Assembly: GCA_963814995.1 (NCBI GenBank)
Contig: CAWFFF010000005.1
Location: 320,719 to 384,718 of the forward strand
Reading direction: 5' to 3'
Length of the DNA: 64,000 nucleotides
Origin: an uncultured Actinomycetes bacterium
GTDB taxonomy: Bacteria > Actinomycetota > Acidimicrobiia > IMCC26256 > PALSA-610
Shown piece after piece: positions 12,046 through 39,939 of the stretch (positions are counted from its first letter, which is position 1; the number at the start of each line of letters is the position of its first letter). The notes beneath the pieces were generated by a model, which saw only the letters and a program-made list of their open reading frames with translations, had not been told where the DNA came from and did no database searches. Position numbers and translations under genes: made by a program.

Positions 12046-12381
12046 CTCGTCTCCCTCCCGGCGCGCCGCGAGGGCGCCGCGCCGTCGACCCCCCGCGTCA
12101 GTACACGAGCATACTCGTCACTATCCGTGGTTGTCGAGCTGACCATTTGTGACAGATACCCGACTTGATCAGGAGAATTCACCGATTTGTAAAGCATTCG
12201 ACGACGGTACGTGACCACTTTCCGCTGCCTTCCGGAACCACGACGAGTCGTACGAGAGATCATCGGACGAAACGGCTCGTTCTCGACCACTCGGGCGCGA
12301 AATGCACGTCCCAGCATCGCGGACGTTCTGATCGGCCACCGGACGCCCGCGTGTCGAGCTCGCCGCCCGGACGGGTACCAA

Positions 12382-14185: not shown

Positions 14186-15380
14186 GTGCGTACTCGAGCC
14201 ATTCTGGTCAGCATCCTGCGTGCCTGCGTCAACGACGACGACAACGCCGTCCGAAAACTGGCGCGCGACGGCCCCGCTCGACGGTCTTGCCGATCTGGCG
14301 TTCGAGCACGGAGTCGCGGGGTCGGTCCACAAGTACGCCGACCTTCTCGGCGGGCTCGATGCCTCCGAACGGCAGTCGCTCGCGGCGGCCGCACTCGGCA
14401 ATCGCATGAACCACGCCCGTATCGGGCGCGACCTGCAGTACCTGGCCGGCGTACTCGCTCCCCTCGCCGTGCCGTGGCTCGTCGTGAAGGGTCCCGCGGC
14501 CGCGGCGACGCTCTATACGCCACCAGAACAACGCACGGCGGGCGACATCGACGCGCTGATCGCGCCGGAACACTTCGCCGCGGCCGTCGAGGCACTCGAG
14601 CGCGCCGGCCATCCCGTGAACGATGCCAACTGGCCGCTCGTGCGCAGCATGACCGCGGGCCAGCTGCACATGGTGCTGCCGCTCGGGACGGTGCTCGACC
14701 TGCACTGGCACCTCCTCTACGAGGCGATCGAACGGCGCCGCTACCCGCTGACGACCGGTGAGCTCATGCCGCGGCGCCGGACCGTGACGATCGCGGACAC
14801 GCAGATCTGCACGCTCGACCGCGCGGACACGGTGATCCACCTCGCGTTCCACGCGGCCAACGAAGGCGCCGACCGGCTGTGCTGGCTGTCCGACATCACG
14901 CGCGCCGCGGCCGCGGTCGAGCCGGCCGAGTGGGACGACGTCGTGTCGCGGGCGACCGCGTGGAGGATGCAGCTTCCGGTGGGAACGGTGTTGCAGCGCG
15001 CGGCACAACAGCTCGGCGCGGCCGTCCCCGCGTCGGTCCCGCGCCGGCTCGCGCCCGCGCCGTGGCGGATGATGATGTCGGGCGCCGACCGGTTGTTCCC
15101 CGTGGCCGCGACGCCCCGGCGGGTCGGGAGTCCGGCGTCGCTGCTGGCGCGCAGCTCCGCGCAGGCCAACACGCCGCGGCGTGCGACCACGACCGCGATC
15201 TCGGGGGTCGCGCGGCGCGCGCTCCACCTCGCGCAGACCGGCGACACCGGTCGCGTCGACCTGACCAATTGCCCGGACTCGCCCGCGAGCTTGCTGTACC
15301 GGGCCGGGGAGCCCGCCGCCGACCGCGATGCGTACTTCGCCGCGATCAGGGACGAAGTCGCGGGCACGACCGCGCACTGA
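14186..15380 (+). pseudogene. Uncharacterised nucleotidyltransferase family protein (PF14907-like), frame shift at the C4 run 14272-14275
   Basis: The body is in the frame of ORF 12948..15380 (LDGLADLAFEHGVAGSV...VVKGPAAAATLY..RTAGDIDALI...LDLHWHL...HLAFHAANEG). The plausible N-terminus VRTRAILVSILRACVNDDDNAVRKLARDG is in the +1 frame, and removing one C joins them as ...RDGPLDGLADL. Alternative in-frame starts are TTG 14184 and GTG 14220. Confidence 0.65.
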
Positions 15381-15389
15381 CGCGACGCG

Positions 15390-15842
15390 CTAGCCCCGCG
15401 CCCTCACTCGGCGCAGCAGGTTCCGCGCGCGCGCCACGACAGGCGGCGAGGGAAGCGGCGCATCCCCACCACGCACGCGCGCGGTGAGCACGGCGCGTGT
15501 CTCCATCGGGCGGTACCCGCCGCCGGGAGGCTCGATGCCGACGACACGCCCGATGAGCAACGCGTCGTCGACGAGCGGGTCGGCGGACACGTTGCCGTCG
15601 CCCCAGAAGCGATTCCGGTCACCGCGCCGGCCGACGAACCGGTGCACCGCGACCGTTTGCGGCGACTCGCAGAACGCCCAGATCTCACCCCATCGCGGCC
15701 GCTCGGAAGCAGATACCCAGACCGCCGATCCTGATACGATCGTCTGGCCCATGGACGAACCGGCGACCTCGATCCGCAGTGGTTCGGATGCGGCACGCAG
15801 CCGGAGCAGCCGTGCGAACGACTCGGAGCTCGTGCTCGACAT
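15390..15842 (-). CDS. S26-family (SipW/archaeal-type) signal-peptidase-like serine peptidase
   Basis: Nucleophile motif AGSSMGQTIVSGSAVWV, then GEIWAF, VHRFVG and WGDGNVSADPLV (the HR...GD.N..D pattern of S26B/S24-like peptidases). Intact ORF. Confidence 0.65.
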   Translation of the reverse strand: MSSTSSESFARLLRLRAASEPLRIEVAGSSMGQTIVSGSAVWVSASERPRWGEIWAFCESPQTVAVHRFVGRRGDRNRFWGDGNVSADPLVDDALLIGRVVGIEPPGGGYRPMETRAVLTARVRGGDAPLPSPPVVARARNLLRRVRARG

Positions 15843-16814
15843 CGCCGGCCTACCTCTCCTGATGCGGGCGGCCGACGCGGCCCATCTCGCCGCCGTGCGC
15901 GCCTCGTTCGGGACCGTGGCCGCATGTGACTCCGCGCCCGAGGCCGAGCTCGACTACGGACCCGGGTCACCTGACGATGCCGGCCCGCGAGCCCGATGCC
16001 CGACAGCCCGACCTCGAGGTGTGGAACGAGGGCGACGTGTTGTTCGCGTCGTCCGACGTGCACGGTGTGCGGGCGCGGGTGACACCGGCTTCGATCGACA
16101 TCGTGTCGACCGGCGCCCCGCACGAGCGATCCCTGCGGCGCATCTTCCAACCGGTGATCACGCACGTGCTCGCGCACCGCGGGGTCTTCGTGATTCACGC
16201 GGCCTCGATGCGCAGGGGCGAGCGCGGGCTGCTCGCGCTCGGCGAGACGGGCAAGGGCAAGTCGACGATCGCGCTTGCCGCGTTCCAGGACGACTGGCGC
16301 GTCATGGGGGATGACCTCGTTGCACTCTGGATCGTCGACGACACCCCGATGATACGCGGGCTGCCGAAGCCGATGGCGCTCCCCAGCGACGTCGCCGCCG
16401 ACGCAATCCCCCGCGCTCCGCGACGCCGAGACTCTCGCATGGGACCACCGACGCCGGCTGCATGTTCCCGTCGAACAACTCGAGCTGCGGGCGGTTCCGC
16501 TCGGCGCGATCGTCGTCGCCGACCACGGCGACGCGCAGCGCTCGACCTCGGAGCCGCTGGCATCGGACCGCACGACATCGTGGCTCATGTCGTCGTACAC
16601 GTCGATCGGCGACGCGCCCCTCATGCGGGAGTTCTTCCCGGTTGCGATCCGCGCCGCGTGCGTCCCCAGCCGCATGCTCTTCCACGGGACCGATCCCGCC
16701 ACCCGTATCGCCGACGCACAGCGGATCCTCGCGGAGGTCGCGACCGAGCTGGTGAACGGTTGCGCCCAGGCACCTGTCAGGGCGCGGGCGACACCGTCAC
16801 GGTGCCGAAGTTGA
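15832..16814 (+). pseudogene. HPr kinase/phosphorylase-like (HprK-related) P-loop kinase, read across three frames
   Basis: Frame 1 reads VLDIAGLPLLMRAADAAHLAAVRASFGTV...ELDYGPG. Frame 2 reads DLEVWNEGDVLF...VFVIHAASMRRGERGLLALGETGKGKSTIALAAF..WRVMGDDLVAL...GLPKPMALP, which includes the P-loop. Frame 3 reads LRDAETLAWDHRRRLHVPVEQLE...SWLMSSYTSIGDAPLMREFF... The shifts lie at about 15960-16005 and at the C5 run 16408-16412. An ATG at 15977 would avoid the first shift but lose the N-terminal domain. Confidence 0.65.
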
Positions 16815-19800
16815 CGTCGGCGCGGTGCGCCGCGAGCACGATCGAACCGCGACTGAGGTCGCCGTTGGCCTGCAGCAGCCACGACGACGGCTCCGTCGTT
16901 CCCGTCCGCCAGACCTTGAACTTGTAGAGACTGCCGCCGATCGCGTTGTCGGTCACGCTGAACTTGAACGTGTACGCGACACCGAGTGTCAGCTTCAGCC
17001 CGCTCGTGTCCTTGATCAGCGTCATCTCCTGATGCGCGTCGGTGTTCTGGTAGATCTCGGCCTTCTGCGTCGCGCCCTGGTCGTTGTCGTACAAGAAGGC
17101 GGCCGGGAAGGGGTGACCGATGCGCGGTTGGTCGGGCATCTGGACTCCGTGGAGATCGGAGGTCGCGCCCTTGAAGCCCGCGATGAGCCCGACCGCGGCG
17201 CCGTCAGGGTCCATGGAGTTGATCGTGACCTGCGCAGTCCCCTGGTACTGCGTCCACGAGCTCGCCTGCCCGATGGTGACGAGACGGTCGTAGCCGATGT
17301 CGCTGTTGCGGATCGTGCCGTCGGCCTGAATCGTCCAGTGCCCGTCAGCGACCTGGGCGATGCTGTTGATGTTGCCACCCGCCGTCGCCCAGTTGGCGGT
17401 GTAGGGCAACGCCCACGGGCCACCGCTGACCTTGTTCACGGTCACGTCGGAAGTCGTCTGGTTGCCGAAGGTGTCGATCGCCTTGAGATGCACCGTGTTG
17501 GCGCCGGATTGGAGCGATGCGTAGTCGAGCTCTACGTTGAATTCGCCGGGCGCGACGAGGCGGACCTGGTTCTCGCCCAACGACAGCGAGTTCGTGGTGC
17601 CGCCGTTCAGCGTGTACGTGAGACTGGCGATGCCGCTCGGGTCGGACACATCGCCGAGCACGTTCACCCACTGCTGCGGTTGCCCGAGGGCGCCGAAGGT
17701 CTCGTTGGACCCGTACCAGAGGTTGACGACGGGCGCGATCGGCGCGGTCGGCCAGGCGACGCCGTCGTCGGTCGCGGGCGGAGCGGTCGAGTTGACGAAG
17801 TAGTCGACCTTCGCCGAGAACGCGGGCGACGAGCCGCCGCCGAAGTTGCCGGCGAACACACCGGCACGCGCGACCGTCAGCGTCTGGGTCAACGCGGCCG
17901 CCGCGGTCCAGCGCATCCCGTCGTACGAGTACCCGAAGGTCCAGCTATTACCGGTACGAGCGACCCGCAGGATGACCGAAGGCTTGTTGTAGATCTCGAA
18001 GTTCGCGACGGTCGTCACTGCTCGCGCCCGACACCGTCTTCACGACGAAGGCGGTCTGGAAGAAGTTCTGCACCAGGCGCGACGTAGAGGTAGTGCGTCG
18101 AGTCCTGCTCGACGACGACACCTTGCTCCTGGAATTGCTGCGACACCGACGAGTCGAACTTGGCGTCGAGGCTCAGGTTGCTGTTCTGGATCGTCTGCAC
18201 GATCCGCGGCGCGCGCGTTGCCGCTCGAAGCCGGATCGTGCGACGAACCCGCGGGGACGTTGATCACCGCATGCTGCCCGTCCATCGACTGCGATCCACC
18301 GCTCGGGTTGACGAAGCTCCACGTGTTGGCGTTCAGCGACCCGGCGCTGAAGTCGTCGTTCGTCAGCGTTGTGGTGGTACCCGAACCACCGTCTTCGGGG
18401 ACGATCGGGCTCGCAGTGTTGAAGAAATAATCGACAGTCGCGGTCCACGCCGGCGGCGGCGAACCCGCGTTCCCCGCATACGGCCCCACCTTCGCGACCG
18501 TCATCGCGAACGAGAACGACCCACCCGTCAACCACGTCACACCATCAAGCGAATACGTGAACAACCACGTCGAACCCGTCCGCTTCACCCGCAACCAGAA
18601 CGGCGCAGGCGCCGACGCCAACGTCGTCGCAACCTTCACCGACGCAGTCGCACCCGACACCGACGCCGCGAACAAGATGACCTGACCGCCACCCGCATTG
18701 AACACATCGAACCGCAACGCAGTCGACGCGTCCTGCTCCACCAGGATCCCCTCATCCTGATACTGCGCCGAACCCATCGACTCGAACTTCGACTCCACCT
18801 CGAAATCCGCATTCGCCGACCGGCTGCACCACCCGCAACGCATGCAACCCCGACGACCAAGAGTCGTGCTCCACCCCACCCGGCACCGACAACACCAACG
18901 CATGACCATTCACCGACACCGAACCGTCGCCGACCGGGTTCTCCACCGACCACAACGACGAATTCAACGACCCCGCATGAAAATCATCCGACACCGGCGA
19001 ACCACCCGACACGCACACGCCGACGTCGTGAACGTCGCATCACCACTCGACGCCGAGTTCGACGACGCATCCGCCGACGTCACCTTGTAGTGATACGTCG
19101 TCGCACACGTCAGCCCCGACACCACCAACGAATGCAACGTCACCAACGACGCCGACGACACATTCGCCCCATAGGCCGCCGTCGACCCCGAATCGACCCG
19201 CGACGACGACACCTCGTCGGTCGCCCACCCAACCGTCGCCGACGTCTGCGACGGCGTCGCCGTCACCCCCGAGATCACCGGCGGCGTCGTGTCCGTCACC
19301 GATCCGTCTTCGGGGACGATCGGGCTCGCAGTGTTGAAGAAATAATCGACAGTCGCGGTCCACGCCGGCGGCGGCGAACCCGCGTTCCCCGCATACGGCC
19401 CCACCTTCGCGACCGTCATCGCGAACGAGAACGACCCACCCGTCAACCACGTCACACCATCAAGCGAATACGTGAACAACCACGTCGAACCCGTCCGCTT
19501 CACCCGCAACCAGAACGGCGCAGGCGCCGACGCCAACGTCGTCGCAACCTTCACCGACGCAGTCGCACCCGACACCGACGCCGCGAACAAGATGACCTGA
19601 CCGCCACCCGCGTTGAACACATCGAACCGCAACGCAGTCGACGCGTCCTGCTCCACCAGGATCCCCTCATCCTGATACTGCGCCGAACCCATCGACTCGA
19701 ACTTCGACTCCACCTCGAAATCCGAATTCGCGACCGGCTGCACCACCCGCAACGCATGCAAACCCGACGCCCAAGAGTCGTGCTCCACCCCACCCGGCAC

Positions 19801-21832
19801 CGACAACACCAACGCATGACCATTCACCGACACCGAACCGTCACCGACCGGGTTCTCCACCGACCACAACGACGAATTCAACGACCCCGCATGAAAATCA
19901 TCCGACACCGGCGAACCACCCGCAGACACACGCCGACGTCGTGAACGTCGCATCACCACTCGACGCCGAGTTCGACGACGCATCCGCCGACGTCACCTTG
20001 TAGTGATACGTCGTCGCACACGTCAGCCCCGACACCACCAACGAATGCAACGTCACCAACGACGCCGACGACACATTCGCCCCATAGGCCGCCGTCGACC
20101 CCGAATCGACCCGCGACGACGACACCTCGTCGGTCGCCCACCCAACCGTCGCCGACGTCTGCGACGGCGTCGCCGTCACCCCCGAGATCACCGGCGGCGT
20201 CGTGTCCGTCACCGATCCGTCTTCGGGGACGATCGGGCTCGCAGTGTTGAAGAAATAATCGACAGTCGCGGTCCACGCCGGCGGCGGCGAACCCGCGTTC
20301 CCCGCATACGGCCCCACCTTCGCGACCGTCATCGCGAACGAGAACGACCCACCCGTCAACCACGTCACACCATCAAGCGAATACGTGAACAACCACGTCG
20401 AACCCGTCCGCTTCACCCGCAACCAGAACGGCGCAGGCGCCGACGCCAACGTCGTCGCAACCTTCACCGACGCAGTCGCACCCGACACCGACGCCGCGAA
20501 CAAGATGACCTGACCGCCACCCGCGTTGAACACATCGAACCGCAACGCAGTCGACGCGTCCTGCTCCACCAGGATCCCCTCATCCTGATACTGCGCCGAA
20601 CCCATCGACTCGAACTTCGACTCCACCTCGAAATCCGAATTCGCGACCGGCTGCACCACCCGCAACGCATGCAAACCCGACGCCCAAGAGTCGTGCTCCA
20701 CCCCACCCGGCACCGACAACACCAACGCATGACCATTCACCGACACCGAACCGTCACCGACCGGGTTCTCCACCGACCACAACGACGAATTCAACGACCC
20801 CGCATGAAAATCATCCGACACCGGCGAACCACCCGCAGCACACGCCGACGTCGTGAACGTCGCATCACCACTCGACGCCGAGTTCGACGACGCATCCGCC
20901 GACGTCACCTTGTAGTGATACGTCGTCGCACACGTCAGCCCCGACACCACCAACGAATGCAACGTCACCAACGACGCCGACGACACATTCGCCCCATAGG
21001 CCGCCGTCGACCCCGAATCAACCCGCGACGACGACACCTCGTCGGTCGCCCACCCAACCGTCGCCGACGTCTGCGACGGCGTCGCCGTCACCCCCGAGAT
21101 CACCGGCGGCGTCGTGTCCGTCACCGATCCGTCTTCGGGGACGATCGGGCTCGCAGTGTTGAAGAAATAATCGACAGTCGCGGTCCACGCCGGCGGCGGC
21201 GAACCCGCGTTCCCCGCATACGGCCCCACCTTCGCGACCGTCATCGCGAACGAGAACGACCCACCCGTCAACCACGTCACACCATCAAGCGAATACGTGA
21301 ACAACCACGTCGAACCCGTCCGCTTCACCCGCAACCAGAACGGCGCAGGCGCCGACGCCAACGTCGTCGCAACCTTCACCGACGCAGTCGCACCCGACAC
21401 CGACGCCGCGAACAAGATGACCTGACCGCCACCCGCGTTGAACACATCGAACCGCAACGCAGTCGACGCGTCCTGCTCCACCAGGATCCCCTCATCCTGA
21501 TACTGCGCCGAACCCATCGACTCGAACTTCGACTCCACCTCGAAATCCGAATTCGCGACCGGCTGCACCACCCGCAACGCATGCAAACCCGACGCCCAAG
21601 AGTCGTGCTCCACCCCACCCGGCACCGACAACACCAACGCATGACCATTCACCGACACCGAACCGTCACCGACCGGGTTCTCCACCGACCACAACGACGA
21701 ATTCAACGACCCCGCATGAAAATCATCCGACACCGGCGAACCACCCGCAGCCGCGGCGGTGTGCATCGGGAGTGCGGCGACGAGGGCAACGGCAACGACG
21801 ACAGCCAGGGCCCGAATACGTCGAATTCTCAC
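16777..21832 (-). pseudogene. Giant secreted LamG/ConA-like + FN3 repeat protein, about 1680 aa if repaired; frame broken at six or more points
   Basis: The GTG at 21832 is preceded by GGGAGGG. Signal peptide VRIRRIRALAVVVAVALVAALPMHTAAA. Three (LamG-like 205 aa + FN3 99 aa) units follow, then a fourth LamG, a fifth diverged LamG, Ig-like domains and a C-terminal ConA-like region (16777..18018). Frame changes occur at about 19926, 19008-19014, 18817, 18205-18215, 18083 and 18020. Confidence 0.75.
18389..21749. repeat. Near-identical tandem repeat, 3.7 copies, periods 912, 913 and 914 bp
   Basis: The marker string CATGAAAATCATCCGACACCGGCGAACCACCCG starts at 21715, 20803, 19890 and 18976. The copies are almost identical by eye except at the unit junctions and around 18810-18860. 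Confidence 0.9.
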
Positions 21833-22078
21833 CGCAACCGCCCTCCCGCTTCCTGAAACTCTAGCGCGCGATCTCACGCAGAGCGATGGCATCCGCGCCT
21901 TTGCCACGGCACGCGCGAGGGTGTGCGGGTCCCCGACAGGGAAACGACGCCAGCGCCCGGGCCGTTCGCGCCCCTGGAAACTGTCGTTCGCGGTGCCGAT
22001 AGAGACGAGACTCCGCGAGAGCCGCGAAACGGCGACCCGGTAGCATCACCAGTTCGAAGCCCAAATTTTGGAGCCGGC

Positions 22079-23689: not shown

Positions 23690-24988
23690 ATGCGTGTCGC
23701 CTTCGTCAACCAGCCCATCGATCGCATCCTGCCGCCCATCCAGAATTCGGTCGGCGCCTGTACATACGGGCTCGGCGGTGCAATCGCGGCCGGTACCGAC
23801 GTCACCGTCTACGGGCGCCGCAACGGTCAGTTCGGCACCGTCGCCGAGCATGAGACGCACGACGGAATGACCTTCCGGTTCCGTGACGTGCCGCGGCCAG
23901 ATCGCCTGCTGTTTCGCTACTACGACCGCATCTCACCCAAGCTCCGCGTCTTCAACCACGGCATGAACCCGCCGGTCTCCTCGTCGCCGGCCTTGTTCCC
24001 GATCTACACGCACAGGGTCGCCCGCGAGGTCGGCGAGGCACGCCACGACGTCGTGCACATCCAGCACAGCACGCAGTTCGTCCGGCCGATCAGGGCACGA
24101 AGCGCCGGCGCGGTCGTGCTCCAACTCCACGCCGAGCTCTACCCGCAGAACAACCTGCGGGCCATCGAACGCCGGCTCGTCGCCGCCGACCTCGTCGTCT
24201 CGGTCAGCGACTACATCACGGAGCTGACGCGCCGGCAGCTCCCGCAGCTCGCCGACCGGTGCCACACCTTGCCGAACGGCATCGACCCCGACGAATTCAG
24301 GGCCGCCAAGGACCATCGCAACCGCACGGGGCCGGTCACGATCATGTTCGCGGGGTCGGTCTCGCCGCACAAAGGCCTGCACCTGCTCATCGATGCGTAC
24401 GCACGCGTCGCGCAGATCCACCCCGACACTCGGCTCCAGATCGTGGGCCCGCTGCACACGGTCCCGCCCTCGGAGACCTTTCCCATGGACGATCCCGCGC
24501 TGGTGCGCAGGATCGCGGCGCTCTACGAAGGCAACTACGCCGAACAACTGCGCGAGCAGATTCCCCGCGAGCTGCGCGACCGCGTCGAGATCACGGATGC
24601 CCTTCCCCGCTCCGAATTGCTCGCGCGCTACGCGGCCGCGGACATCTTCGTGTTCCCTCCCATCTGGGACGAAGGCTTCGGGCTCCCACCCGTCGAAGCG
24701 ATGGCAGCCGGCGTCCCGGTCGTGGCGTCGCGCTCGGGCGCGGTCGCCGACACGGTGGTCGACGGCGAGACGGGCTTCCTGGTCGACAAGGACGACGTCG
24801 AGGCGTTGACTGTTGCGATGACCCGGCTCGTCGCCGATGCCGACCTGCGCGCCACGATGGGAGAAGCCGCGCGCGCACGCGCGCTCGCGTCGTTCACGTG
24901 GGCCGACGCGGGTACCCGCGCGCTCGACCTGTACGAGCTCGCGCGCAAGATCGCGGCGAGCGACCCGAAGCGCAAGCCGGACGCCTGA
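23690..24988 (+). CDS. Glycosyltransferase family 4 (GT-B), paralog A
   Basis: The C-terminal motif FVFPPIWDEGFGLPPVEAMAAGVPVVASRSGAVADTVVDGETGFLV is the EX7E region of GT4. Similar along its full length to the next gene. Confidence 0.88.
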   Translation: MRVAFVNQPIDRILPPIQNSVGACTYGLGGAIAAGTDVTVYGRRNGQFGTVAEHETHDGMTFRFRDVPRPDRLLFRYYDRISPKLRVFNHGMNPPVSSSPALFPIYTHRVAREVGEARHDVVHIQHSTQFVRPIRARSAGAVVLQLHAELYPQNNLRAIERRLVAADLVVSVSDYITELTRRQLPQLADRCHTLPNGIDPDEFRAAKDHRNRTGPVTIMFAGSVSPHKGLHLLIDAYARVAQIHPDTRLQIVGPLHTVPPSETFPMDDPALVRRIAALYEGNYAEQLREQIPRELRDRVEITDALPRSELLARYAAADIFVFPPIWDEGFGLPPVEAMAAGVPVVASRSGAVADTVVDGETGFLVDKDDVEALTVAMTRLVADADLRATMGEAARARALASFTWADAGTRALDLYELARKIAASDPKRKPDA

Positions 24989-26256
24989 TGCGGATCGCGT
25001 TCGTCAACCAGGCCATCGATCGCGTCATCCCGCCTCTCCAGAATTCGGTCGGGGCATGTACCTACGGGCTGGGTGGAGCACTCGTCCCGACCGATGACAT
25101 CACGGTTTACGCGCGCGGCAACGCGCACGTAGGCGTGGCGCCCGAAGAGAGGCACGTCGGCATGCGCTTCCGCTTCCTCGACGCGCCGCGTGCCGATCGG
25201 GCTCTGTTCCGCTTCTACGACAAGTACTCGCCGCTGCTCCGACCGTTGAACCACGGGATGATCGAGCCGATCTCGTCGTCCGCGACTCTCTTCCCGTTCT
25301 ACACACACGCCGTCGCACGCGAGGTCGGGCGCGTCCGCCCCGACGTCGTGCACGTCCAACACAGCACGCAGTTCGTCCGCCCGCTGAAGCGTCACAGCCC
25401 GGGTTCGGCGGTCGTCCTGCAGCTCCAGGCCGAGTTGTATCCGCAGAACAACCTCCGCGCCATCGCCCGTCGCCTCACGGCCGCAGACGTGATCGCCACA
25501 CCGAGCGACTACGTGACGGCCAAGACGCGTGAACAGCTCCCCCGCCTCGCCGACCGGTGCCACACGCTCGCCGACGGCATCGACCCGCGCGAGTTCCCCG
25601 TCGCGAGGCAGCATCGGGGTCGCACCGGGCCGCTCACGATCATGTTCGCCGGCTCGGTGTCGCCGAACAAGGGCGTGCACGTGCTCATCGACGCGTTCGC
25701 GCGGATCGCCACGAGCCAACCCGACACCAAGCTCGATATCGTCGGCCCGTTGCACACGGTCCCGCTGTCGGAGACCTATCCGATGGACGACGCGCCACTC
25801 ATTGCGCAGGTGTCGCCGTTGTACACCGACGATTACATCGCACGACTGCGCGCGTCCATCCCGGCCGAGCTCGCCGAGCGCGTGTCGATCACCGGCGGCA
25901 TCCCGCGCGCCGAACTCCTCGCGCGCTACGCCGCCGCCGACGTCTTCGTCTTCCCGTCGATCTGGGACGAGGGGTTCGGCCTGCCCCCTGTCGAGGCCAT
26001 GGCCGCCGGGGTACCCGTCGTCGCGACCCGATCGGGTGCGGTGGTCGAGACGGTGCTCGACGGTTCGACCGGCATTCTCGTCGACAAGAACGATCCGGCC
26101 GGGCTCGCGGCCGGGATCGCGCGACTGCTCGACGACGCGGGGCTGCGCGCGTCCATGGGCGAGAACGGGCGCCGCCGCGCGCTCGGAACCTTCACATGGG
26201 AGCATGCGGCTACCCGGGCGCTCGAGCTCTACGAGCTCGCCCGCTCCCGGCGCTGA
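24988..26256 (+). CDS. Glycosyltransferase family 4 (GT-B), paralog B
   Basis: The ATG overlaps the upstream TGA (TGATG at 24986-24990). MRIAFVNQAIDRVIPPLQNSVGACTYGLGG parallels MRVAFVNQPIDRILPPIQNSVGACTYGLGG. Also carries FVFPSIWDEGFGLPPVEAMAAGVPVVATRSGAVVETVLDGSTGILV. Confidence 0.88.
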   Translation: MRIAFVNQAIDRVIPPLQNSVGACTYGLGGALVPTDDITVYARGNAHVGVAPEERHVGMRFRFLDAPRADRALFRFYDKYSPLLRPLNHGMIEPISSSATLFPFYTHAVAREVGRVRPDVVHVQHSTQFVRPLKRHSPGSAVVLQLQAELYPQNNLRAIARRLTAADVIATPSDYVTAKTREQLPRLADRCHTLADGIDPREFPVARQHRGRTGPLTIMFAGSVSPNKGVHVLIDAFARIATSQPDTKLDIVGPLHTVPLSETYPMDDAPLIAQVSPLYTDDYIARLRASIPAELAERVSITGGIPRAELLARYAAADVFVFPSIWDEGFGLPPVEAMAAGVPVVATRSGAVVETVLDGSTGILVDKNDPAGLAAGIARLLDDAGLRASMGENGRRRALGTFTWEHAATRALELYELARSRR

Positions 26257-26260
26257 CCCG

Positions 26261-26282
26261 GCGACACGCGACCCGGTGTCGC
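26261..26282. terminator. Hairpin between convergent genes
   Basis: GCGACAC (26261-26267) pairs with GTGTCGC (26276-26282), giving a 7-bp stem between the stops at 26256 and 26282. Confidence 0.35.
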
Positions 26283-27064
26283 TACCACTCCGACGACTTG
26301 CGCAGCAGTCCGTCGCGGCGGGCGAAGCAGAGGTCGAGCTGGCCGAGCGCGCCGTCGAGCTCCCGACGAGCGAATCCGGCGACGTCGTAGACGACGAAGT
26401 CGCGTTCCTCCATGAAGGCGACGACCTCGGCGAGAAGCGGCGTGTCCGGGAGGAACTCGAACAACGAGACCTCCATCACGAACATCTCGGCAACCTCGAA
26501 CACGCCGGTCGCGCCGCGGAGCGCCTCGAGCTCGAAGCCCTGGATGTCGAGCTTCACGAGTTCCGGCCGGGCGTAGCCCTCGCGCGCCAGCAGTTCGTCG
26601 ATCGTGACGATCGGCACCACCCGGGTGGGCCTGTCGCCGCCGTCGCGATCGGGTGTCAGGAACGACGAGCCGACGAGGTCGTCCCAGATGGTGAGCGTCA
26701 GCTCACCCGAGGTCGAACCGGCGCCGACCTCGAACCAGCGGCAGTTCGACCCGGGCGTGCACAGCGCGTCGAGATAGCCGGCCATCTCGTGCTGGGGCTC
26801 GATCAGGACGAAGCGGGCCTCGGGAAAGACCGAGTGCGCAAGACGGGTCCAGTCGCCGCGGTTGGCGCCGACGTCGAGCACCACGTTGCAACGCAGCCCA
26901 CGCGCGTGGAGGTCGGCGAGGAACGTGCTCATCACGCCGATGCCGCCGGTCTGAGCGAACGAACCGACTCGTTTCACGTCGATGCCGAGACGCGCGAGCC
27001 CGCGCTTGACCACGGATCGCGCTCGGAAGCCCAGCTCGCGGTTCATCGTTCTCCCCAGCTGCAA
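26282..27064 (-). CDS. FkbM-family SAM-dependent methyltransferase
   Basis: VVLDVGANRGDWT (SAM motif I), VKLDIQGFELEALRGA (the FkbM hallmark). Last gene of the peptide-PqqD-ABC string. Confidence 0.8.
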   Translation of the reverse strand: MQLGRTMNRELGFRARSVVKRGLARLGIDVKRVGSFAQTGGIGVMSTFLADLHARGLRCNVVLDVGANRGDWTRLAHSVFPEARFVLIEPQHEMAGYLDALCTPGSNCRWFEVGAGSTSGELTLTIWDDLVGSSFLTPDRDGGDRPTRVVPIVTIDELLAREGYARPELVKLDIQGFELEALRGATGVFEVAEMFVMEVSLFEFLPDTPLLAEVVAFMEERDFVVYDVAGFARRELDGALGQLDLCFARRDGLLRKSSEW

Positions 27065-27121
27065 TCGCGTTTCACGCCTGCTCGACGATAGTCGAGCAGG
27101 CTCTGCCGTCTGATCGTCACG

Positions 27122-27970
27122 TCAGTACGACCCGAGCGTTCCGGTGACGCGCGCGACACGCAACGCCTTCTTCAAAGCGATGAGTGACAACGGGAGCAGC
27201 ACGACCGCGAACGCGACGAGAATCGCGTAGTCGGTCCCGACCTGGGTGATCGACTGACCGTTGATGAGCCCTTCGCGCAGGACCTGCAGCGCGTAGAACG
27301 GCGGGAGTACGTGCGCGACACCCTGCAGGACGCCGGGCAGCACCGCGATGGGGAACAGCGCACCGGCGAGAAAGTTCGTCGTCTGCGTGACGACCGGCGT
27401 GAACGGATCGCCGCGCTTGCTGAGCACGATGAACGCGGCCGAGACGGCGCCGATCGCCGCGAACAGCGCGAGCGTGGGTGGCAACGCGAGCAGCGCGGTG
27501 AGGATTCCCTGCGCCTGGAACTGCGCGCCCAGGGCGACGATCGCGAAGAAGAAGACGAAGAGGATCTCGACCAGCGCGAATCCCAGTGGAACGACGAGCG
27601 AGCCGATGAACAGCGTCGGCAGCGCGGTGGGTGTTGCCAGCAGGACCTCGAGCGTCCCGCTCGTCTGCTCCGCCCGAATCGTCTCGGTGAACGCGCCGAG
27701 GCCGACGCTCGAGATCGCCCCGAGCAGCAGACCGATGACGACGAACTCGAAGTACCGACCTCCGTATTGCGACAGGTGGCTGGGATCCACGATCTTGCTG
27801 ATGAAGTAGTACGCCGCGACGCTCGCGACGATGGAGAACGCGCGCGAGATCAGCGCGAACTGATACGAGATCTCGACCCAGAAATCCCTCGTGGCGATCG
27901 CGCGGATCTGCGCGAACGGTGTCGATCCCAAGACGCTCGGAATCTGGTCGGCCGGGCTCGGCGCGGTCAC
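27122..27970 (-). CDS. ABC-2 type transporter permease
   Basis: Six predicted TM helices. The GTG at 27970 overlaps the ATPase stop (GTGA). ABC-2 style sequence, e.g. EQTSGTLEVLLATP. Confidence 0.8.
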   Translation of the reverse strand: MTAPSPADQIPSVLGSTPFAQIRAIATRDFWVEISYQFALISRAFSIVASVAAYYFISKIVDPSHLSQYGGRYFEFVVIGLLLGAISSVGLGAFTETIRAEQTSGTLEVLLATPTALPTLFIGSLVVPLGFALVEILFVFFFAIVALGAQFQAQGILTALLALPPTLALFAAIGAVSAAFIVLSKRGDPFTPVVTQTTNFLAGALFPIAVLPGVLQGVAHVLPPFYALQVLREGLINGQSITQVGTDYAILVAFAVVLLPLSLIALKKALRVARVTGTLGSY

Positions 27971-28738
27971 GACTCGCTCACCTCGCGCTCGAGGATCTCG
28001 AGGAGCTCCCGCGCCGCGACGTGGTAGTCGCCGTCTCCTATGCGCCCGACGTGACGCACGCTCCCGTCGATGAGCATGACCACGCGGTCGCACCACGTCG
28101 CGACCTCGTCCAGCCGATGGCTCGACAACAACACCGATCGGCCGGCGTCGGCCTGTTCGCGCAGCAACCTGCCGACGGTGACGCTCGCGATGGGGTCGAG
28201 GCTTCGGGTCGGCTCGTCGAGCACGATGAGTGCGGGCTCGGGCATCACGGCCCGCGCCACGTTCGAGCGCGGCGCGCATACCCGACGAGTAACCCATGAC
28301 CCGTCGATCGCGGTCGGCGAGCCCCAGCCGTTCCAGGAGCTCCGTGGCGCGGCGGCGAGCCTCCGGGAGCGGCAACCCGTCCAGCACGCCGAAGAACTCC
28401 AGGTTCTGGCGGCCGTCGAGACGCCAGTACGTCGCGCGGTCGCCGCTCAGCACGAGGCCGAGCTTCTTGCGCGCCTCACGCGGCGACGCGAAGACGTCGA
28501 TCCCGTCGATCGACACCGAGCCCGACGACGGCTCCAACAACGTGCTGATGATCTTGAGCAGGGTCGTCTTCCCGGCGCCGTTCGGGCCGACCAACCCGAC
28601 GATCTCTCCCGACTGCACGTCGAAGGTCACGTCGTGCAGCGCGTCGACGGTCTTCGTGGACGCGACCCGAACGAAGGGCCGCAGGTACCACGGCGCGCGC
28701 ATGTACTGCTTGCCGACTCCCTCGATCTGCAAGCTCAC
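27967..28738 (-). pseudogene. ABC transporter ATP-binding protein, frame broken near 28262-28266
   Basis: Walker A GPNGAGKTTLLK, Q-loop region and signature YSSGMRAAL are in the 27122..28738 frame. The continuation NVARAVMPEPALIVLDEPTRSLD (Walker B) and SSHRLDE (H-loop) are in the 27967..28260 frame. One extra base separates them. Confidence 0.8.
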
Positions 28739-28753
28739 GGCTGCAGCCGATCG

Positions 28754-29026
28754 TCAGTCGGTGGGTGACACGAAACCGAGGTGGACGAGTTCATCGAGGA
28801 AGGTTTCGACGTCCGTGGTCGCTTGCGTGAGGCTCACTTCGGGAAACGCCTCGTGCACGACCTCGGCCAGGCGGGAAACCGACGTCGGCGCCGAGGCCAG
28901 GGTCCGCCAGATCAACGAACCGACGGGGTTCAGAGTGACCAGCTCGCTCGACGCCTGGTCGATGAGCATCACCTTGACGTCGACCTGCTCCCACAAGACA
29001 CCGCTCGCGACATCGAAGTTCGGCAC
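28754..29026 (-). CDS. PqqD-family protein (RiPP recognition element-type peptide chaperone fold)
   Basis: 90 aa. Pattern ...VMLIDQASSELVTLNPVGSLIWRTL....SVSRLAEVVHEAF.EVSLTQATTDVETFLDELVHLGFV is typical of PqqD/RRE domains. The GTG start is preceded by GAGGAAGAG. Confidence 0.75.
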   Translation of the reverse strand: MPNFDVASGVLWEQVDVKVMLIDQASSELVTLNPVGSLIWRTLASAPTSVSRLAEVVHEAFPEVSLTQATTDVETFLDELVHLGFVSPTD

Positions 29027-29092
29027 GTCTCTTCCTCGTTCCGAGCGCTGCTCTTACGAGCCGGTGTTCCGAGCCGAGTGTTCCGAGCGAGC

Positions 29093-29120
29093 GTTGCCCG
29101 CGGCCCGTACCGCGGACAAC
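29093..29120 (-). terminator. Strong stem-loop 29 nt downstream of the small ORF (attenuator or processing-type hairpin)
   Basis: The minus strand reads GTTGTCCGCGG-TACGGG-CCGCGGGCAAC: an 11-bp stem (one G-U pair) and a 6-nt loop. No U-tract. Confidence 0.45.
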
Positions 29121-29148
29121 GACCCCGCCCGATTCTCTTGCTTCCCCG

Positions 29149-29259
29149 CTAGCGGTGCGTGGGGGGGCAGTAGCTGCCCTGGGTGCGGGTCAGAAGACCG
29201 GCAACGTCCTCACGACGCTCGACTGCGGGCGACGTGTACTTGCTGGTGTGGTCCGTCAC
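29149..29259 (-). CDS. Candidate 36-aa precursor-like peptide MTDHTSKYTSPAVERREDVAGLLTRTQGSYCPPTHR
   Basis: The GTG at 29259 has GGGAGG 9 nt upstream (TGGGAGGAAATTCTCCGTG); TAG stop at 29149-29151. It lies immediately upstream of, and co-directional with, the PqqD gene. There is no homology evidence; the call rests on position and the RBS only. Confidence 0.4.
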   Translation of the reverse strand: MTDHTSKYTSPAVERREDVAGLLTRTQGSYCPPTHR

Positions 29260-29504
29260 GGAGAATTTCCTCCCATATGTTCGCGTCACGCAGAGTCCGT
29301 GTGACCCTGCGCCAACCTCGAAGCGTGAGCCTACACGCAGATCGGCGGGTCGCACAGGCAAGACACAACCGATGAGACAAAGACCACTCAACCACGGACC
29401 ACACCCGTCCGAATACGGGAAGTGGGCGTGCTACCGTTCTCCGCTACATACGGTCGGTCAAGTGCTTTGCGCCCCATTGGCCGAATTCGTCAGGGATTCG
29501 CATC

Positions 29505-30524
29505 ATGACTCGAGAAGCATCCTCGGAGATCCCCGGCGCGCCGCGTGCCGGCACGCGCGTGCTGGTCACGGGCGGTGGCGGCTTCATCGGGGGCTGGCTG
29601 GTCGCCGACCTCCTACACCGCGGCTACGAGGTCCGGGCCGCCGACGTGAAGCCGTTCGGCGAGTGGTACCAGGTCCACTCGGGCGCCGAGAACCTCACGC
29701 TCGACCTGAGCCAGATCGGGGCCTGCCGCACCGCCGTCGACGGCATCCAGCAGGTCTTCAACCTCGCCGCCGACATGGGCGGCATGGGCTTCATCGAGCT
29801 CAACAAGGCCGCCTGCATGCTCACCGTGCTCATCAACACCCACATGTTGATGGCGGCGCGCGAGGCGGGGGTCGAGCGCTTCTTCTACTCGTCGTCCGCT
29901 TGCGTGTACGCGGCCGACAAGCAGGTCGACGCCGACGTCACCGCGCTGCGTGAGGCGGACGCCTACCCCGCGATGCCCGAAGACGGTTACGGCTGGGAGA
30001 AGCTGTTCTCGGAGCGGATGTGCCGCCACTTCGAGGAGGACTTCGGCCTGAAGACCCGGGTCGCCCGCTACCACAACGTCTACGGCCCGCAGGGAACCTG
30101 GGACGGCGGTCGCGAGAAGGCACCGGCTGCGATCTGCCGCAAGGTCGCAACCGCGGTGCTCACCGACCTCCCGAAGATCGAGATCTGGGGCGACGGCCAG
30201 CAGACCCGCAGCTTCACGTACATCGACGACTGTGTATACGGCACCGAACGGCTGACGTGGAGCGACGTCAACGAGCCCCTGAACGTGGGTTCGAGCGAGC
30301 TCGTCTCGATCAACCAGATGGTCGACATCGTCGAGGACATCGCGGGCGTCAAGCTCGAGCGCAACTACCTGCTCGACGCACCGAAGGGCGTGCGGGGCCG
30401 CAACTCCGACAACACGCGGATCCTCGAGCTGTTCGGATGGCAGCCGAGCACCACCTTGCGGCAGGGCCTCGAGCAGAACTACCGCTGGGTCTACGACCAG
30501 GTTTCCAAGTCGCTCGGTCGTTGA
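29505..30524 (+). CDS. GDP-mannose 3,5-epimerase-like NAD-dependent epimerase
   Basis: VLVTGGGGFIGGWL, SSSACVY, DGYGWEKLFSE (YxxxK) and the GME-like block RYHNVYGPQGTWDGGREKAPAAICRK. Confidence 0.75.
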   Translation: MTREASSEIPGAPRAGTRVLVTGGGGFIGGWLVADLLHRGYEVRAADVKPFGEWYQVHSGAENLTLDLSQIGACRTAVDGIQQVFNLAADMGGMGFIELNKAACMLTVLINTHMLMAAREAGVERFFYSSSACVYAADKQVDADVTALREADAYPAMPEDGYGWEKLFSERMCRHFEEDFGLKTRVARYHNVYGPQGTWDGGREKAPAAICRKVATAVLTDLPKIEIWGDGQQTRSFTYIDDCVYGTERLTWSDVNEPLNVGSSELVSINQMVDIVEDIAGVKLERNYLLDAPKGVRGRNSDNTRILELFGWQPSTTLRQGLEQNYRWVYDQVSKSLGR

Positions 30525-37246: not shown

Positions 37247-37414
37247 CGTCGTACTCACTTGTTCACAGATCGAACGATGACTGATCGAACGATGATGTCG
37301 GGGACCAGTCGGGTCCGCATCTCTCGCTCCACGGGTCGCGCAGACGGTCACCCAGCCCGGCGGAGCGTAGCTCACGGTTGTGCCCGGGCCCGGACACAAC
37401 CGTGAGCGAGACTC

Positions 37415-39468
37415 CTAGCCGGAGACGACCGCGCCCGATACCCACAGGTCGTCGAGGTTCACGTACTGGTTGGACCCGGCGGGCTTGTCGAACCAGACCT
37501 TCAACGTGTGCCGCCCCGGCGTCAGGCGGGCTCCCATCGTCAGCTTCGACCACGAGTTCCAGTCGAGGGTCGCCGGGAAGGTCTTGTTCGCCACCCACAC
37601 CTTGCCGTCCAGCTCGAGTTTCCGGTGCGCATTGCCGTTGCCGGCGCTGTAGCGCAGTGCCATTGTCGTCCATCCACCGATCGCGTTGAACGAGAACGTC
37701 ACGTACTGGCCCTGCGAACCCCAGCAGCAGACGTACGGCGCGTTCTCGGCACCGGACCACCGCGACTCCGTCGGGATGTTCCTCGGCGACGAGCCCGCCG
37801 GGATCACGAGGATCGGCGAGACCGTGAGGGTGTCGAGGTTCAGGTAGTTGTGCGAACCGGAGTTCCGGTCGAGCCAGATCTTGAGCGTGTGGCGACCCGG
37901 GCTCAGGCTCCTGCTCAGCGAGATCGACCTCCAGGAATTCCAGTTCTTGGTCGCCCAGAAGTTGGCCCCGCCGACCCACACCGAACCGTCGAGGTCGACC
38001 CTGCGCTGCGCCAATCCGTTCCCGGCGCTGTACCGGAGCGCAAGATTCGTCGGACCGCCGGACGCGTCGAACGAGAAGGTCACGTACTGGCCCTGCGACG
38101 CCCAGCAACAGACGTACGGATCGGTCTGCGCTCCCGACCAACGTGACTCGGTCCCGATGTTCCTCGCCGCGGACGACGCGGGGATCACCTGACGCGTCCG
38201 CGGGCGTCTTGACGGGCGCCGTCGTCGGCACCGTGGTCACCACCGGCGGACGGGTCGTCGTCGTCGCCTTCGGCGCGGTCGTCGTCGTCGCCTTCGGCGC
38301 GGTCGTCGTCGTCGCCTTCGGCGCGGTCGTCGTCGTCGCCTTCGGCGCGGTCGTCGTCGTCGCCTTGGGTGCGGTGGTGGTCGCCACGCCGCCGACGGTC
38401 GCAGGCGGTGACGACGGACCGAAGAGCGAGCGGAAACGTGCGGCGGCGTTCGGGAAGTGCGACAGCATGTGGTAGCCGTCGTTCGACGTGTCCTCGTTGA
38501 AGTACGACTGGTACGCGAGGCTGCCGGCGCCGCTGCTCGGAAGACCGCTCATCCAGTCGAACATGCCCTGGATGAATGCGGGGTCGTCGTTGCCCGCGCT
38601 GTTCGGCGACTCGGCGCCGCCACTCGCGAGCGCCCACTCCGGGAAGCTGACCTGCTTGCCGTGCGCGATGGCGAAGTCCCGCTGGAAGGTGAGGCTCGGT
38701 ATGTCCGTCGCGAAAGCGGCCGCGGGGTCGACCCACGTACGCGTCGACGAATTCCACGGGCTCGCCAGACTCTTGTCGTAGAGGTCCATCCCGATGATGT
38801 CGACGTAGTTGTCGCCCGGGTACGCGCTGGTCTGACCCTGCATCCAACCGGGGTCGCCGTTCCAGTCGAAGCGGAAGCTCGACGACACGGAGCGGAAGAT
38901 GTCGGCCGCGCGGCGGTACGCGTTGACCCACAGCGCTTCGTTGCCGCGCGACGACCACGGCATCCAGCCGCCGTCGAACTCCCAACCGAGGCGGATGATC
39001 GCGTCGGCGTTGCCACTGTCGCGGAGGTACGTCGCCGCGACGCGGAAGCCGGTGTCGTTCGCGCCGTTCACTGTCGCCTGCAACTGCGCACGCGCGGTCG
39101 CCTGTCCCGAAGCTGAGTTCGCGTCGACGAAGTTGCCGAACGCGAGCGGCACTGACTCGACGAACGTCGTGCTGTTCGCGAGCGTCTGCATCGAGCCCGC
39201 CTTGACGACCTCACCCCACACGCTCGACATGAACGCGGAAGGCGACGAGATGTCACCGAACTGCACGAGGTACTTCGCGTCGCGTCCCAACCACGTCTCC
39301 AGCGAGTTGAACTGCGAGAGGTTTCCGTAGCCGGGGTAGAAGCCCAACTGCGTCACGGCCGGTCGGTCGGTCGCCGACGCTCGGTTCATCATTCCTGCGC
39401 CGACGAGACCGGTCGCGCTCAACGCCGCGAGCAGCACCGCGATGCGCGTGCGCATGCTGTTCATCATG
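37415..39468 (-). pseudogene. Secreted GH26-like hydrolase + TTTTAPKA linker + two CBM6/35-like domains; frame broken near 38185-38200
   Basis: Signal peptide MMNSMRTRIAVLLAALSATGLVGAG. GH motifs IIRLGWEFDGGW and VSFPEWAL. The linker is followed, in another frame (ORF 37415..38188), by two similar modules of about 125 aa (WSGA..PYVCCW.SQGQYVTFSF...ALRYSAGNG...NSW...PGRHTLK.W...YLNLD). The GH26 frame has no stop before 37263. Confidence 0.7.
38254..38373. repeat. 24-bp tandem repeat x5 (GTCGTCGTCGTCGCCTTCGGCGCG) encoding the TTTTAPKA linker
   Basis: Four perfect units and one variant, read directly from the sequence. Confidence 0.9.
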
Positions 39469-39939
39469 CGACGACGGCGCCGGAAGCGTTCCGGTGCGTG
39501 CGACCATTCTCGGTCGGAAGTGAATGAAGTCACGGACAAGATGACCCCCCCGGTCAAAACGTGGACTGGCTATCAATCGGTCGGGTCTGCCGATTTCTTG
39601 ATCACGTCGGGCTGCGACGTCCGCCGAATTCACGTTCGTGGGTTGGTTCCGACGTCGAGATGTCCGCGATGAACCAAACCGTCGTAAACCTGACTTCCCC
39701 CCTCATCGCCATCCTCGTGCGCGCGCACTTCGGAGCCGTGTCGGTCCTGCGTACCAAGCGTGTGTTACGCATCCATGCATGCACGCGAGCGTTCACGTGT
39801 CGTCCCCCGAACGTTCGCGGTGCGCGGTCATGCGCAAGTGCGTTCGCGCCGAGCGCGAGATGCACGTTCTTTCGCGGACGCGTCTCCTCCCGCGCCGCGC
39901 ATGAGATGAACTGACGAAGACGCGCGCCTGTCGCGACAC

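Follow-up and report, generated by a model that had tools for sequence, protein, structure and literature searches.

Does a short peptide gene placed ahead of a recognition protein and an exporter mark a pathway for a peptide that is synthesized ribosomally and modified post-translationally (RiPP) when none of the enzymes that define the known RiPP classes lies nearby? The question is raised by contig CAWFFF010000005.1 (positions 320,719–384,718, forward strand) of assembly GCA_963814995.1, from an uncultured Actinomycetes bacterium of the class Acidimicrobiia. We refer to this whole 64,000-nucleotide stretch of DNA, which has a G+C content of ~69% and its closest relatives among Acidimicrobiia metagenome-assembled genomes, as the window. 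On its minus strand, a 36-codon open reading frame (ORF) precedes genes for a PqqD-family protein, an ATP-binding cassette (ABC) ATPase, an ABC-2 permease and an FkbM methyltransferase, an order given in the original prediction and borne out by matches to protein families, to which we add a frameshift in the ATPase gene. The best reading of the locus, judged from the sequences compared here, is a RiPP-like pathway assembled from lasso-peptide parts without the lasso cyclase and the B2 protease, likely of an undescribed kind and lying inside a polysaccharide cluster. The original reading of the genes as a RiPP-like cassette gains from the conservation of the peptide gene, the RiPP recognition element (RRE) fold of the PqqD protein, the leader motif of the peptide and the recurrence of a distal trio of genes, and loses the methyltransferase as a member.

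The peptide gene, its family and its signals

The precursor-like gene occupies positions 29149–29259 of the minus strand, from a GTG start codon (29259–29257) to a TAG stop codon (29151–29149), and encodes a product of 36 amino acids (MTDHTSKYTSPAVERREDVAGLLTRTQGSYCPPTHR). A Shine-Dalgarno sequence, GGGAGG (29269–29274, minus strand), lies 9 nt ahead of the start, and all of these elements are found exactly where they were first predicted. The peptide has a leader-like region (YTSPAVERREDVAGLL), followed by the motif GSYCPP and a variable tail, THR. Consistent with translation, the G+C content of the ORF is highest at the third codon position (0.80, with 0.60 at each of the other two).

A profile of the peptides recovered at least 45 called small-protein homologues from a collection of 5.8 billion proteins, and an exhaustive hidden Markov model search of 1.84 billion cluster representatives matched 37 of them. 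These searches indicate that the peptide family is genuine but small. It is confined, within our sampling, to Acidimicrobiia-type metagenome-assembled genomes and has the consensus M(K/T)(D/E)H...YxxPA(I/V)ERRE(D/N)VxGLL-x4-GSYCPP, followed by 1–17 variable residues. The C-terminal GSYCPP-like motif, whose conservation had been anticipated, is held in the family of at least 45 homologues. We compared 13 distinct DNA copies of the gene over 22 conserved codons and found 8, 6 and 19 variable sites at codon positions 1, 2 and 3, respectively; codon differences among the copies comprised 489 synonymous versus 374 non-synonymous changes. Because the protein is conserved across these 13 distinct copies and the variation falls mostly at codon position 3, the conservation of the ORF exceeds chance, and the nucleotide alignments indicate that it is a real, conserved gene.

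The N-terminal two thirds of the peptide, YxxPA(I/V)ERRE(D/N)VxGLL, carries the signature of a lasso leader. Lasso leaders contain a YxxPxL motif at positions -17 to -12, and the precursors of phosphorylated lasso peptides have an Ile or Val at position -2 (PMC10368454). Among 46 family members, the Tyr, Pro and Ala residues are invariant or nearly so, and the residue at +5 from the Tyr is Val or Ile in nearly all. The spacing of the motif, YxxPx(L/I/V), fits YxxPxL, and a hydrophobic residue of the peptide falls at the place of the Ile/Val(-2) of phosphorylated lasso precursors. The C-terminal region (x4-GSYCPP and the variable tail) differs from a lasso core in having no conserved acidic residue. 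Since the conserved core has no Asp or Glu acceptor, a lariat cannot form and the product is not a lasso peptide. We also identified longer proteins of 70–202 amino acids (P0085, P0086, P0090, P0091, P0094, P0095, P0097 and P0098) in which a related unit, (M)RYExPxIxRRExIxGLL ... SD(V/I)xxK(E/D)N(I/V)VPV(T/R)W, is repeated two to four times. Their sequences suggest that they may be multi-unit precursors using the same recognition motif as the 36-aa family.

To compare loci, PqqD orthologues with 58–100% identity were traced to their contigs (the L-numbered loci). An in-frame peptide homologue lies directly upstream of the PqqD gene in nine of the 13 sampled lineages (the window, L001/L013, L007, L011, L019, L003/L004, L015, L021 and L018, the last with a garbled copy). 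These lineages span divergent peptide subtypes and 58–100% PqqD identity, and the ribosome-binding site and start position of the peptide gene are kept. The prediction that the small ORF would be conserved and in frame in orthologous loci is thereby supported in the nine lineages.

Signals on both sides of the gene recur as well. An (A/T)TGGGAGGA motif ahead of the start is also found in L001, L003, L007, L011 and L019. Furthermore, an alignment of 13 upstream regions revealed a motif common to the peptide genes, CACGCTTCGAGGTTGG ... CTGCGTGACGC (29284–29327, minus strand), which is also present before the standalone peptide copies of L023. Scans of positions 28700–29560 for sigma-70 promoter and intrinsic-terminator consensus sequences gave no match. 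Because the sigma-70 scan was empty, we infer from recurrence that the motif is probably a promoter or a 5' leader.

A GC-rich hairpin (29092–29121, minus strand) separates the peptide gene from the PqqD gene. It starts ~27–29 nt past the peptide stop codon and folds into 13 base pairs, two of them G-U, with a 4-nt loop and no T tract; the stem had been described as 11 bp long. The 111-nt region containing the hairpin has a z score of -3.35 relative to shuffled sequences. Strong hairpins (-25 to -40 kcal/mol) recur within 10–70 nt 3' of the peptide gene and are seen in 12 of the 13 copies examined. The hairpin sequences vary among copies, and those of L015 include paired changes. The exception is L003, where the scripted search picked a hairpin inside the PqqD gene and a short hairpin (GTCGCGGCCCGCGAC) can be discerned by eye ~20 nt past the stop. 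An Rfam scan of positions 28600–29700 gave no match. The hairpin fits a role in setting the expression of the precursor apart from that of the enzymes.

We also observed a non-coding element of ~55 nt (window 29385–29455) between the start of the epimerase gene (29505) and the peptide operon. Read in the sense of the epimerase it has the form GTCCGAATACG-N5-GTGGGCGTGCTACCGTTCTCCGCTACATA, and on the opposite strand it reads GTAGC-N9-GTAGC. The element has no match in Rfam and is near-invariant in 12 of 12 PqqD loci, even in divergent loci with different flanks, a pattern that probably marks a shared regulator site or a promoter of the divergent operons.

Chaperone, candidate modifying enzymes and known systems

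The gene that follows the hairpin (28754–29026, minus strand) codes for a PqqD-family protein of 90 amino acids (PF05402, E 3e-13) that resembles the B1 chaperones of lasso pathways. The best matches of its profile in the PDB are lasso B1 chaperones (9x8z_B, TbiB1, 9x90_B and TfuB1). Its AlphaFold (AF2) model, with a mean confidence (pLDDT) of 90.9, superimposes on leader-bound TbiB1 with a template-modelling (TM) score of 0.87–0.90 and a root-mean-square deviation of 1.1–1.8 A in a fold search, and on TfuB1 with a TM score of 0.80–0.85; other RRE domains and PqqD itself rank lower. Fold search and profile search agree in this placement. The best NCBIfam family of the protein is likewise lasso_PqqD_Strm, yet the match scores 32.8 bits against a cut-off of 70. 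As far as a predicted model can indicate, the protein has a true RRE fold and is closest to lasso B1, in agreement with the RRE assignment of the original prediction. Since both profile and model resemble leader-bound lasso B1, we infer that it binds the leader of the peptide.

A trio of genes at 14.2–16.8 kb of the window, 12 kb from the peptide cassette, supplies candidate modifying enzymes. The first (~14190–15380, plus strand) encodes a nucleotidyltransferase of family PF14907 (NTP_transf_5, E 2e-36), which by analogy is a candidate for a phospho-glycosyl or nucleotidyl transferase with the peptide as its substrate. The second (15390–15842, minus strand) encodes a small S24/S26-like peptidase candidate with the motifs GSSMGQT ... 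VHRFVG ... FWGDGN. Its family matches are weak (Pfam S24, E 0.021; signal peptidase I, E 0.055). Its top profile match is the PDB signal peptidase 4me8, whose catalytic GSSMEPT aligns with the GSSM of the candidate and whose catalytic Lys is replaced by a conserved His. The ORF is conserved in five loci, and the assignment as an S24/S26-like peptidase is weak but consistent. Sequence searches with the PF14907 and S24-like proteins against solved structures returned no significant match.

The third member of the trio (~15751–16755, plus strand) is a candidate P-loop kinase of the HprK/ScmC type with the motif GETGKGKST, and it is split over three reading frames in the window. Its best NCBIfam match is HprK_rel_A (E 1e-9, below cut-off), and the precomputed Pfam family of these kinases is PF27840 ('ScmC'). 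A DNA alignment did not place the frameshifts of the window gene, as the relatives are too divergent. Kinase orthologues keep the motif G(E/D)(T/S)G(K/Q)GKST, and the model of an intact orthologue (P0073, pLDDT 86.7) has the fold of phosphoenolpyruvate carboxykinase and HprK.

The trio had been proposed as a tailoring set from the window, and its position in related loci strengthens that proposal. The three genes for the kinase, the S24-like protein and PF14907 come immediately after the ABC permease gene in L003 and L015. In L021, the kinase and S24-like genes immediately follow the PqqD gene, and neither ABC genes nor a PF14907 gene occur before a GH26 gene. In L013, L016, L017 and L018, the trio lies 4–9 kb from the cassette. 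By gene neighbourhood, the trio is a set that recurs with the peptide cassette. The most distant locus (P0081, JGI 3300067032) groups a kinase (47% identical) with a 46-aa ORF, a PqqD gene, an ABC pair and a 146-aa ORF. The same locus encodes a 482-aa PF14907 nucleotidyltransferase that is fused to its own PqqD domain, beside the separate PqqD gene. Such a fusion is typical of peptide-modifying enzymes.

No class-defining RiPP enzyme had been noticed in the window, and none emerged from our scan, which covered all ORFs longer than 200 aa and several shorter ones, with those under ~100 aa covered in part. The scanned ORFs gave no Pfam or NCBIfam match to an Asn-synthetase-like cyclase, a transglutaminase-like B2 protein, a radical SAM enzyme, YcaO or a lanthionine synthetase. 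Asn_synthase, the family of the lasso cyclase (C), matched nothing in the window and nothing in any related locus. Likewise, the gene lists of L003, L015 and the P0081 locus contain no transglutaminase-like B2 leader peptidase, and those of the related loci contain no radical SAM, YcaO or lanthionine synthetase family. With the cyclase, the B2 protease and an acidic acceptor in the core all wanting, we rejected a lasso peptide cluster. What the locus does contain, a conserved precursor gene beside an RRE, candidate modifying enzymes and an exporter, is the arrangement of a generic RRE-dependent RiPP locus.

The nearest counterparts are the clusters of phosphorylated and phosphoglycosylated lasso peptides, namely paeninodin, the Bradymonas bsf system (BsfK and BsfB1) and pseudomycoidin (PsmK and PsmN). 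Like the present locus, they combine a small precursor whose leader is of the YxxPxL type with a discrete B1 chaperone resembling PqqD and an ABC exporter, and they have genes for an HPr-kinase homologue and a nucleotidyltransferase (N), the last two recognized here by homology. Experiments on these systems have shown that HPr-kinase homologues phosphorylate lasso precursors in their linear form, that the B1 chaperone BsfB1 speeds up BsfK, and that the nucleotidyltransferase of pseudomycoidin adds hexoses to the phosphate of phosphoserine. Unlike these clusters, neither the window nor any relative has a cyclase C or B2 gene, the S24/S26-like protein is the sole peptidase candidate and the system sits inside a polysaccharide locus.

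Other systems pair similar proteins. The HPr-rel-A system (TIGR04352 kinase A, TIGR04353 PqqD-family chaperone and TIGR04355 kinase B), which is defined by annotation models only, also couples an HprK-related kinase to a PqqD-family chaperone. However, a second kinase was not seen here, the kinase scores 37.9 bits against TIGR04352 (cut-off 200), and the chaperones of the window and L003 score 17.0 and 24.2 bits against TIGR04353 (PqqD_rel_X, cut-off 35). To our knowledge, no peptide or function has been described for HPr-rel-A. SynChlorMet combines an HprK-like ScmC, a PqqD-like ScmD and radical SAM proteins. Pfam PF27840 ('ScmC') is shared through the kinase, and the PqqD protein has ScmD as its second-best match in NCBIfam, but the scores (14.5 versus a cut-off of 125 for TIGR04249, and 30.4 versus 100 for TIGR04248) are low and the locus has no radical SAM gene. 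With all scores below cut-off, the system appears to be only a remote relative of the HPr-rel-A and SynChlorMet cassettes. Pyrroloquinoline quinone (PQQ) and mycofactocin loci share a short precursor, with Tyr in a conserved motif, encoded beside a PqqD-fold chaperone, but their radical SAM partner (PqqE or MftC), PqqB and PqqC are missing here; the PqqD protein scores 16.1 bits against TIGR03859 (cut-off 46), and the window contains no PqqB, PqqC or PqqE. Searches of the literature for HPr kinases or HprK-related kinases, with PqqD or RRE proteins, nucleotidyltransferases or RiPPs, yielded only lasso papers, none describing the present arrangement, and two RRE survey papers mention neither kinases nor nucleotidyltransferases.

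The balance leans a little towards the 36-aa peptide being what the module of chaperone and kinase acts on. In the pathway that we propose, the PqqD chaperone would bind the leader and present the peptide to the HprK/ScmC-like kinase, which would phosphorylate the GSY motif at its invariant Ser or possibly at its Tyr. The PF14907 nucleotidyltransferase could then add a sugar or a nucleotide to that phosphate, and the S24/S26-like peptidase may remove the leader in place of B2. The DrrAB/NodIJ-type ABC-2 pump would export the short product, GSYCPP with its variable tail, and the hairpin 3' of the peptide gene would keep the peptide mRNA in excess over the enzyme mRNA. On this reading the product is probably a phosphorylated or phosphoglycosylated linear peptide, and our confidence in each single chemical step is lower than in the substrate assignment. 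Tentatively, and with more doubt than conviction, we suggest a new class of short linear-peptide RiPPs that have a GSYCPP core with a hypervariable tail and a lasso-type leader and chaperone, are phosphorylated and phosphoglycosylated or nucleotidylated, stay uncyclised and use a Ser/His S26-like leader peptidase.

If the pathway is as proposed, a lasso recognition module (leader and B1) and tailoring enzymes (kinase and nucleotidyltransferase) can work as a cyclase-free pathway, and genome-mining rules keyed to the cyclase would presumably miss such clusters. It would also provide a first functional hint for the proteins of the HprK/ScmC-like and PF14907 types that are repeatedly encoded next to PqqD chaperones. 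The precursor family, with its invariant Gly-Ser-Tyr, is well defined and directly testable. The constant placement among Wzx/Wzy genes and the standalone peptide copies beside GGDEF and ANTAR regulators suggest that the product might serve as a secreted signal that is coupled to the production of matrix, or could even be phospho-linked to the exported polysaccharide. A ribosomal peptide and the making of exopolysaccharide could then be linked in uncultured soil Acidimicrobiia.

Counter-evidence and rival explanations

Several observations weigh against a RiPP-like pathway. The modification chemistry and the link between enzymes and substrate are drawn by analogy, and the assignment of the peptidase is built on sub-threshold matches (E 0.02–0.25). 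The ATPase and kinase genes of the window are frameshifted, for which decay is a possible cause. No ABC genes and no PF14907 gene adjoin the L021 cassette. Furthermore, five related PqqD clusters have no peptide gene upstream (L002/L017, L016, L005/L012, L008/L014 and L009/L010), and four peptide copies lie away from any PqqD gene, beside regulators or transporters (L020, L022, L023 and L024). The original prediction had named PqqD homologues without an upstream peptide as evidence that would speak against it, and these five clusters and the standalone peptides supply part of that evidence. Its expectation that the small ORF would always sit upstream of PqqD holds in the nine lineages listed above and fails in the five clusters, one of which belongs to a genome with a peptide copy 300 kb away. 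Finally, every PqqD-linked locus comes from one narrow clade, so that the conservation of gene order says little about function.

An unlikely alternative is that the PqqD protein, kinase, nucleotidyltransferase and peptidase serve the assembly or export of polysaccharide, the PqqD fold having been recruited to glycans and the peptide being unrelated or accessory. A Wzx/Wzy-type polysaccharide locus spans 2.8–47 kb of the window, with genes for a priming sugar transferase, GT2 and GT4 glycosyltransferases, a flippase, Wzy, Wzz-like proteins, a BY-kinase-like protein, GH26 proteins and sugar-nucleotide enzymes. Each PqqD-linked locus with visible flanks (~7 kb or more) similarly lies among sugar and polysaccharide genes (epimerase, GT2/GT4, Wzx, Wzy and GH26). 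The five clusters without an adjacent peptide keep an intact PqqD gene, and most keep the ABC genes; in L005, these are lost except for a permease remnant of 41 residues. Glycans, too, are exported by ABC-2 pumps. However, DrrAB/NodIJ-type families give the ABC components their highest scores, and the matches listed for them include no exporter family for O-antigen or teichoic acid. The model of the PqqD protein comes nearest to lasso B1 chaperones with a bound peptide, a leader motif to match is present in the peptide, and the fusion of PqqD to PF14907 is typical of peptide-modifying enzymes. In addition, a check was possible for one genome with a peptide-less cluster (L002/L017), and it does encode a family member, P0044, ~300 kb from that cluster.

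We also give a small chance to the peptide being a free-standing small protein or a signal, regulatory or secreted, that is independent of the PqqD cassette and owes its adjacency in one clade to history. Monocistronic copies with their own upstream motif and terminator are consistent with this explanation (the L023 tandem pair, L022, L024 and L020). They lie beside ANTAR, GGDEF or BTAD regulators, an MFS (major facilitator superfamily) gene or a gene for a secreted papain-like protein. For example, L023 (9679–10108) carries a tandem pair of paralogues (GSWCPP variants), each with its own upstream motif and terminator, by an ANTAR-domain gene, and an ANTAR response regulator is encoded near the standalone copy of L022. 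On the 2.2-kb contig L020, a family member (MQDRTDTDVAYAAPAIERREDVKGVLGDRTKGSYCPPGVDN) has an MFS transporter gene on one side and a gene for a secreted papain-like cysteine-peptidase-like protein on the other, and no PqqD gene occurs within the next 900 nt. The L001/L013 genome has a second peptide copy that adjoins a GGDEF gene. Against independence stand the nine of 13 sampled lineages, with divergent subtypes, in which the peptide is directly upstream of PqqD, and the leader-like motif, which is otherwise unexplained so far. Extra precursor genes elsewhere in the genome are, moreover, common for RiPPs. The remote and standalone copies fit precursors encoded away from the cluster and equally keep the idea of an independent peptide alive.

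That the locus is a decaying, non-functional remnant of a lasso cluster that lost its cyclase and B2 is very unlikely. The ATPase and kinase frameshifts in the window, the loss of peptide or ABC genes in some relatives and the permease remnant of L005 could be taken as signs of decay. Yet purifying selection acts on the peptide, PqqD, kinase and peptidase in lineages that span 58–100% PqqD identity, and B2 and C are missing from every sampled locus. The conserved core contains no Asp or Glu acceptor and therefore does not derive from a recent lasso core. Sequencing or assembly error may be the simpler cause of the frameshifts, because an unrelated repeat gene at 18–22 kb is also broken and several related contigs have frameshifted genes too. 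The repeat gene, which encodes a DUF1349 protein, is divided into three ORFs in the window versus a single gene of >1360 aa in L001, and this suggests indel errors in this assembly.

Lastly, the order of a short ORF, a strong hairpin and an operon recalls a translated upstream ORF whose hairpin attenuates the PqqD-ABC operon and whose peptide has no function, a scarcely credible explanation that we rejected in its pure form, as the amino-acid sequence itself is conserved amid many synonymous changes and standalone peptide genes end in terminators with no operon behind them.

Exporter, methyltransferase and polysaccharide neighbours

Downstream of the PqqD gene, the minus strand encodes a DrrA-like ABC ATPase (27967–28738) and a NodJ/DrrB-like ABC-2 permease (27122–27970), both identified by library matches. 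The ATPase gene has a +1 frameshift near 28263, also apparent from frame analysis. A 538-aa ORF (27122–28738) is a frameshift artefact rather than a fused transporter, because the third-position G+C content changes frame near 28263 and orthologous ATPases align in two frames. One extra base accounts for the difference (GCGCTCGAACGT in the window versus GCGCT-GAACGT in five relatives).

The FkbM methyltransferase (26282–27064, minus strand; TIGR01444, E 2e-25) had been a candidate for tailoring the peptide. The gene is missing from L003 and L015, which carry the peptide, and from L008 and L009, and none was seen in the 3.8-kb L021, whereas the peptide-less clusters L016 and L017 do have it. With its presence uncoupled from that of the peptide, we dropped FkbM as a peptide tailoring enzyme. 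Because its occurrence does not track the peptide, FkbM is probably a neighbour from the polysaccharide pathway. The flanking glycosyltransferases, too, appear to belong to the surrounding Wzx/Wzy locus.

GH26-family glycoside hydrolase genes (window 12211–13524 and 37263–39557; L003, L021 and L024) recur beside the kinase and peptidase genes, and one standalone peptide copy also has a GH26-family gene nearby. The DUF1349 repeat gene consists of tandem repeats of ~913 bp with a strong GC skew (18040–21907, minus strand; copies at 18431, 19346, 20259 and 21171), which encode a DUF1349/GH43_C2/purple-acid-phosphatase-N repeat protein. Finally, two neighbouring GT4 glycosyltransferase genes (23690–24988 and 24988–26256) are paralogous, and their closely similar N-termini give them the look of a tandem duplication.

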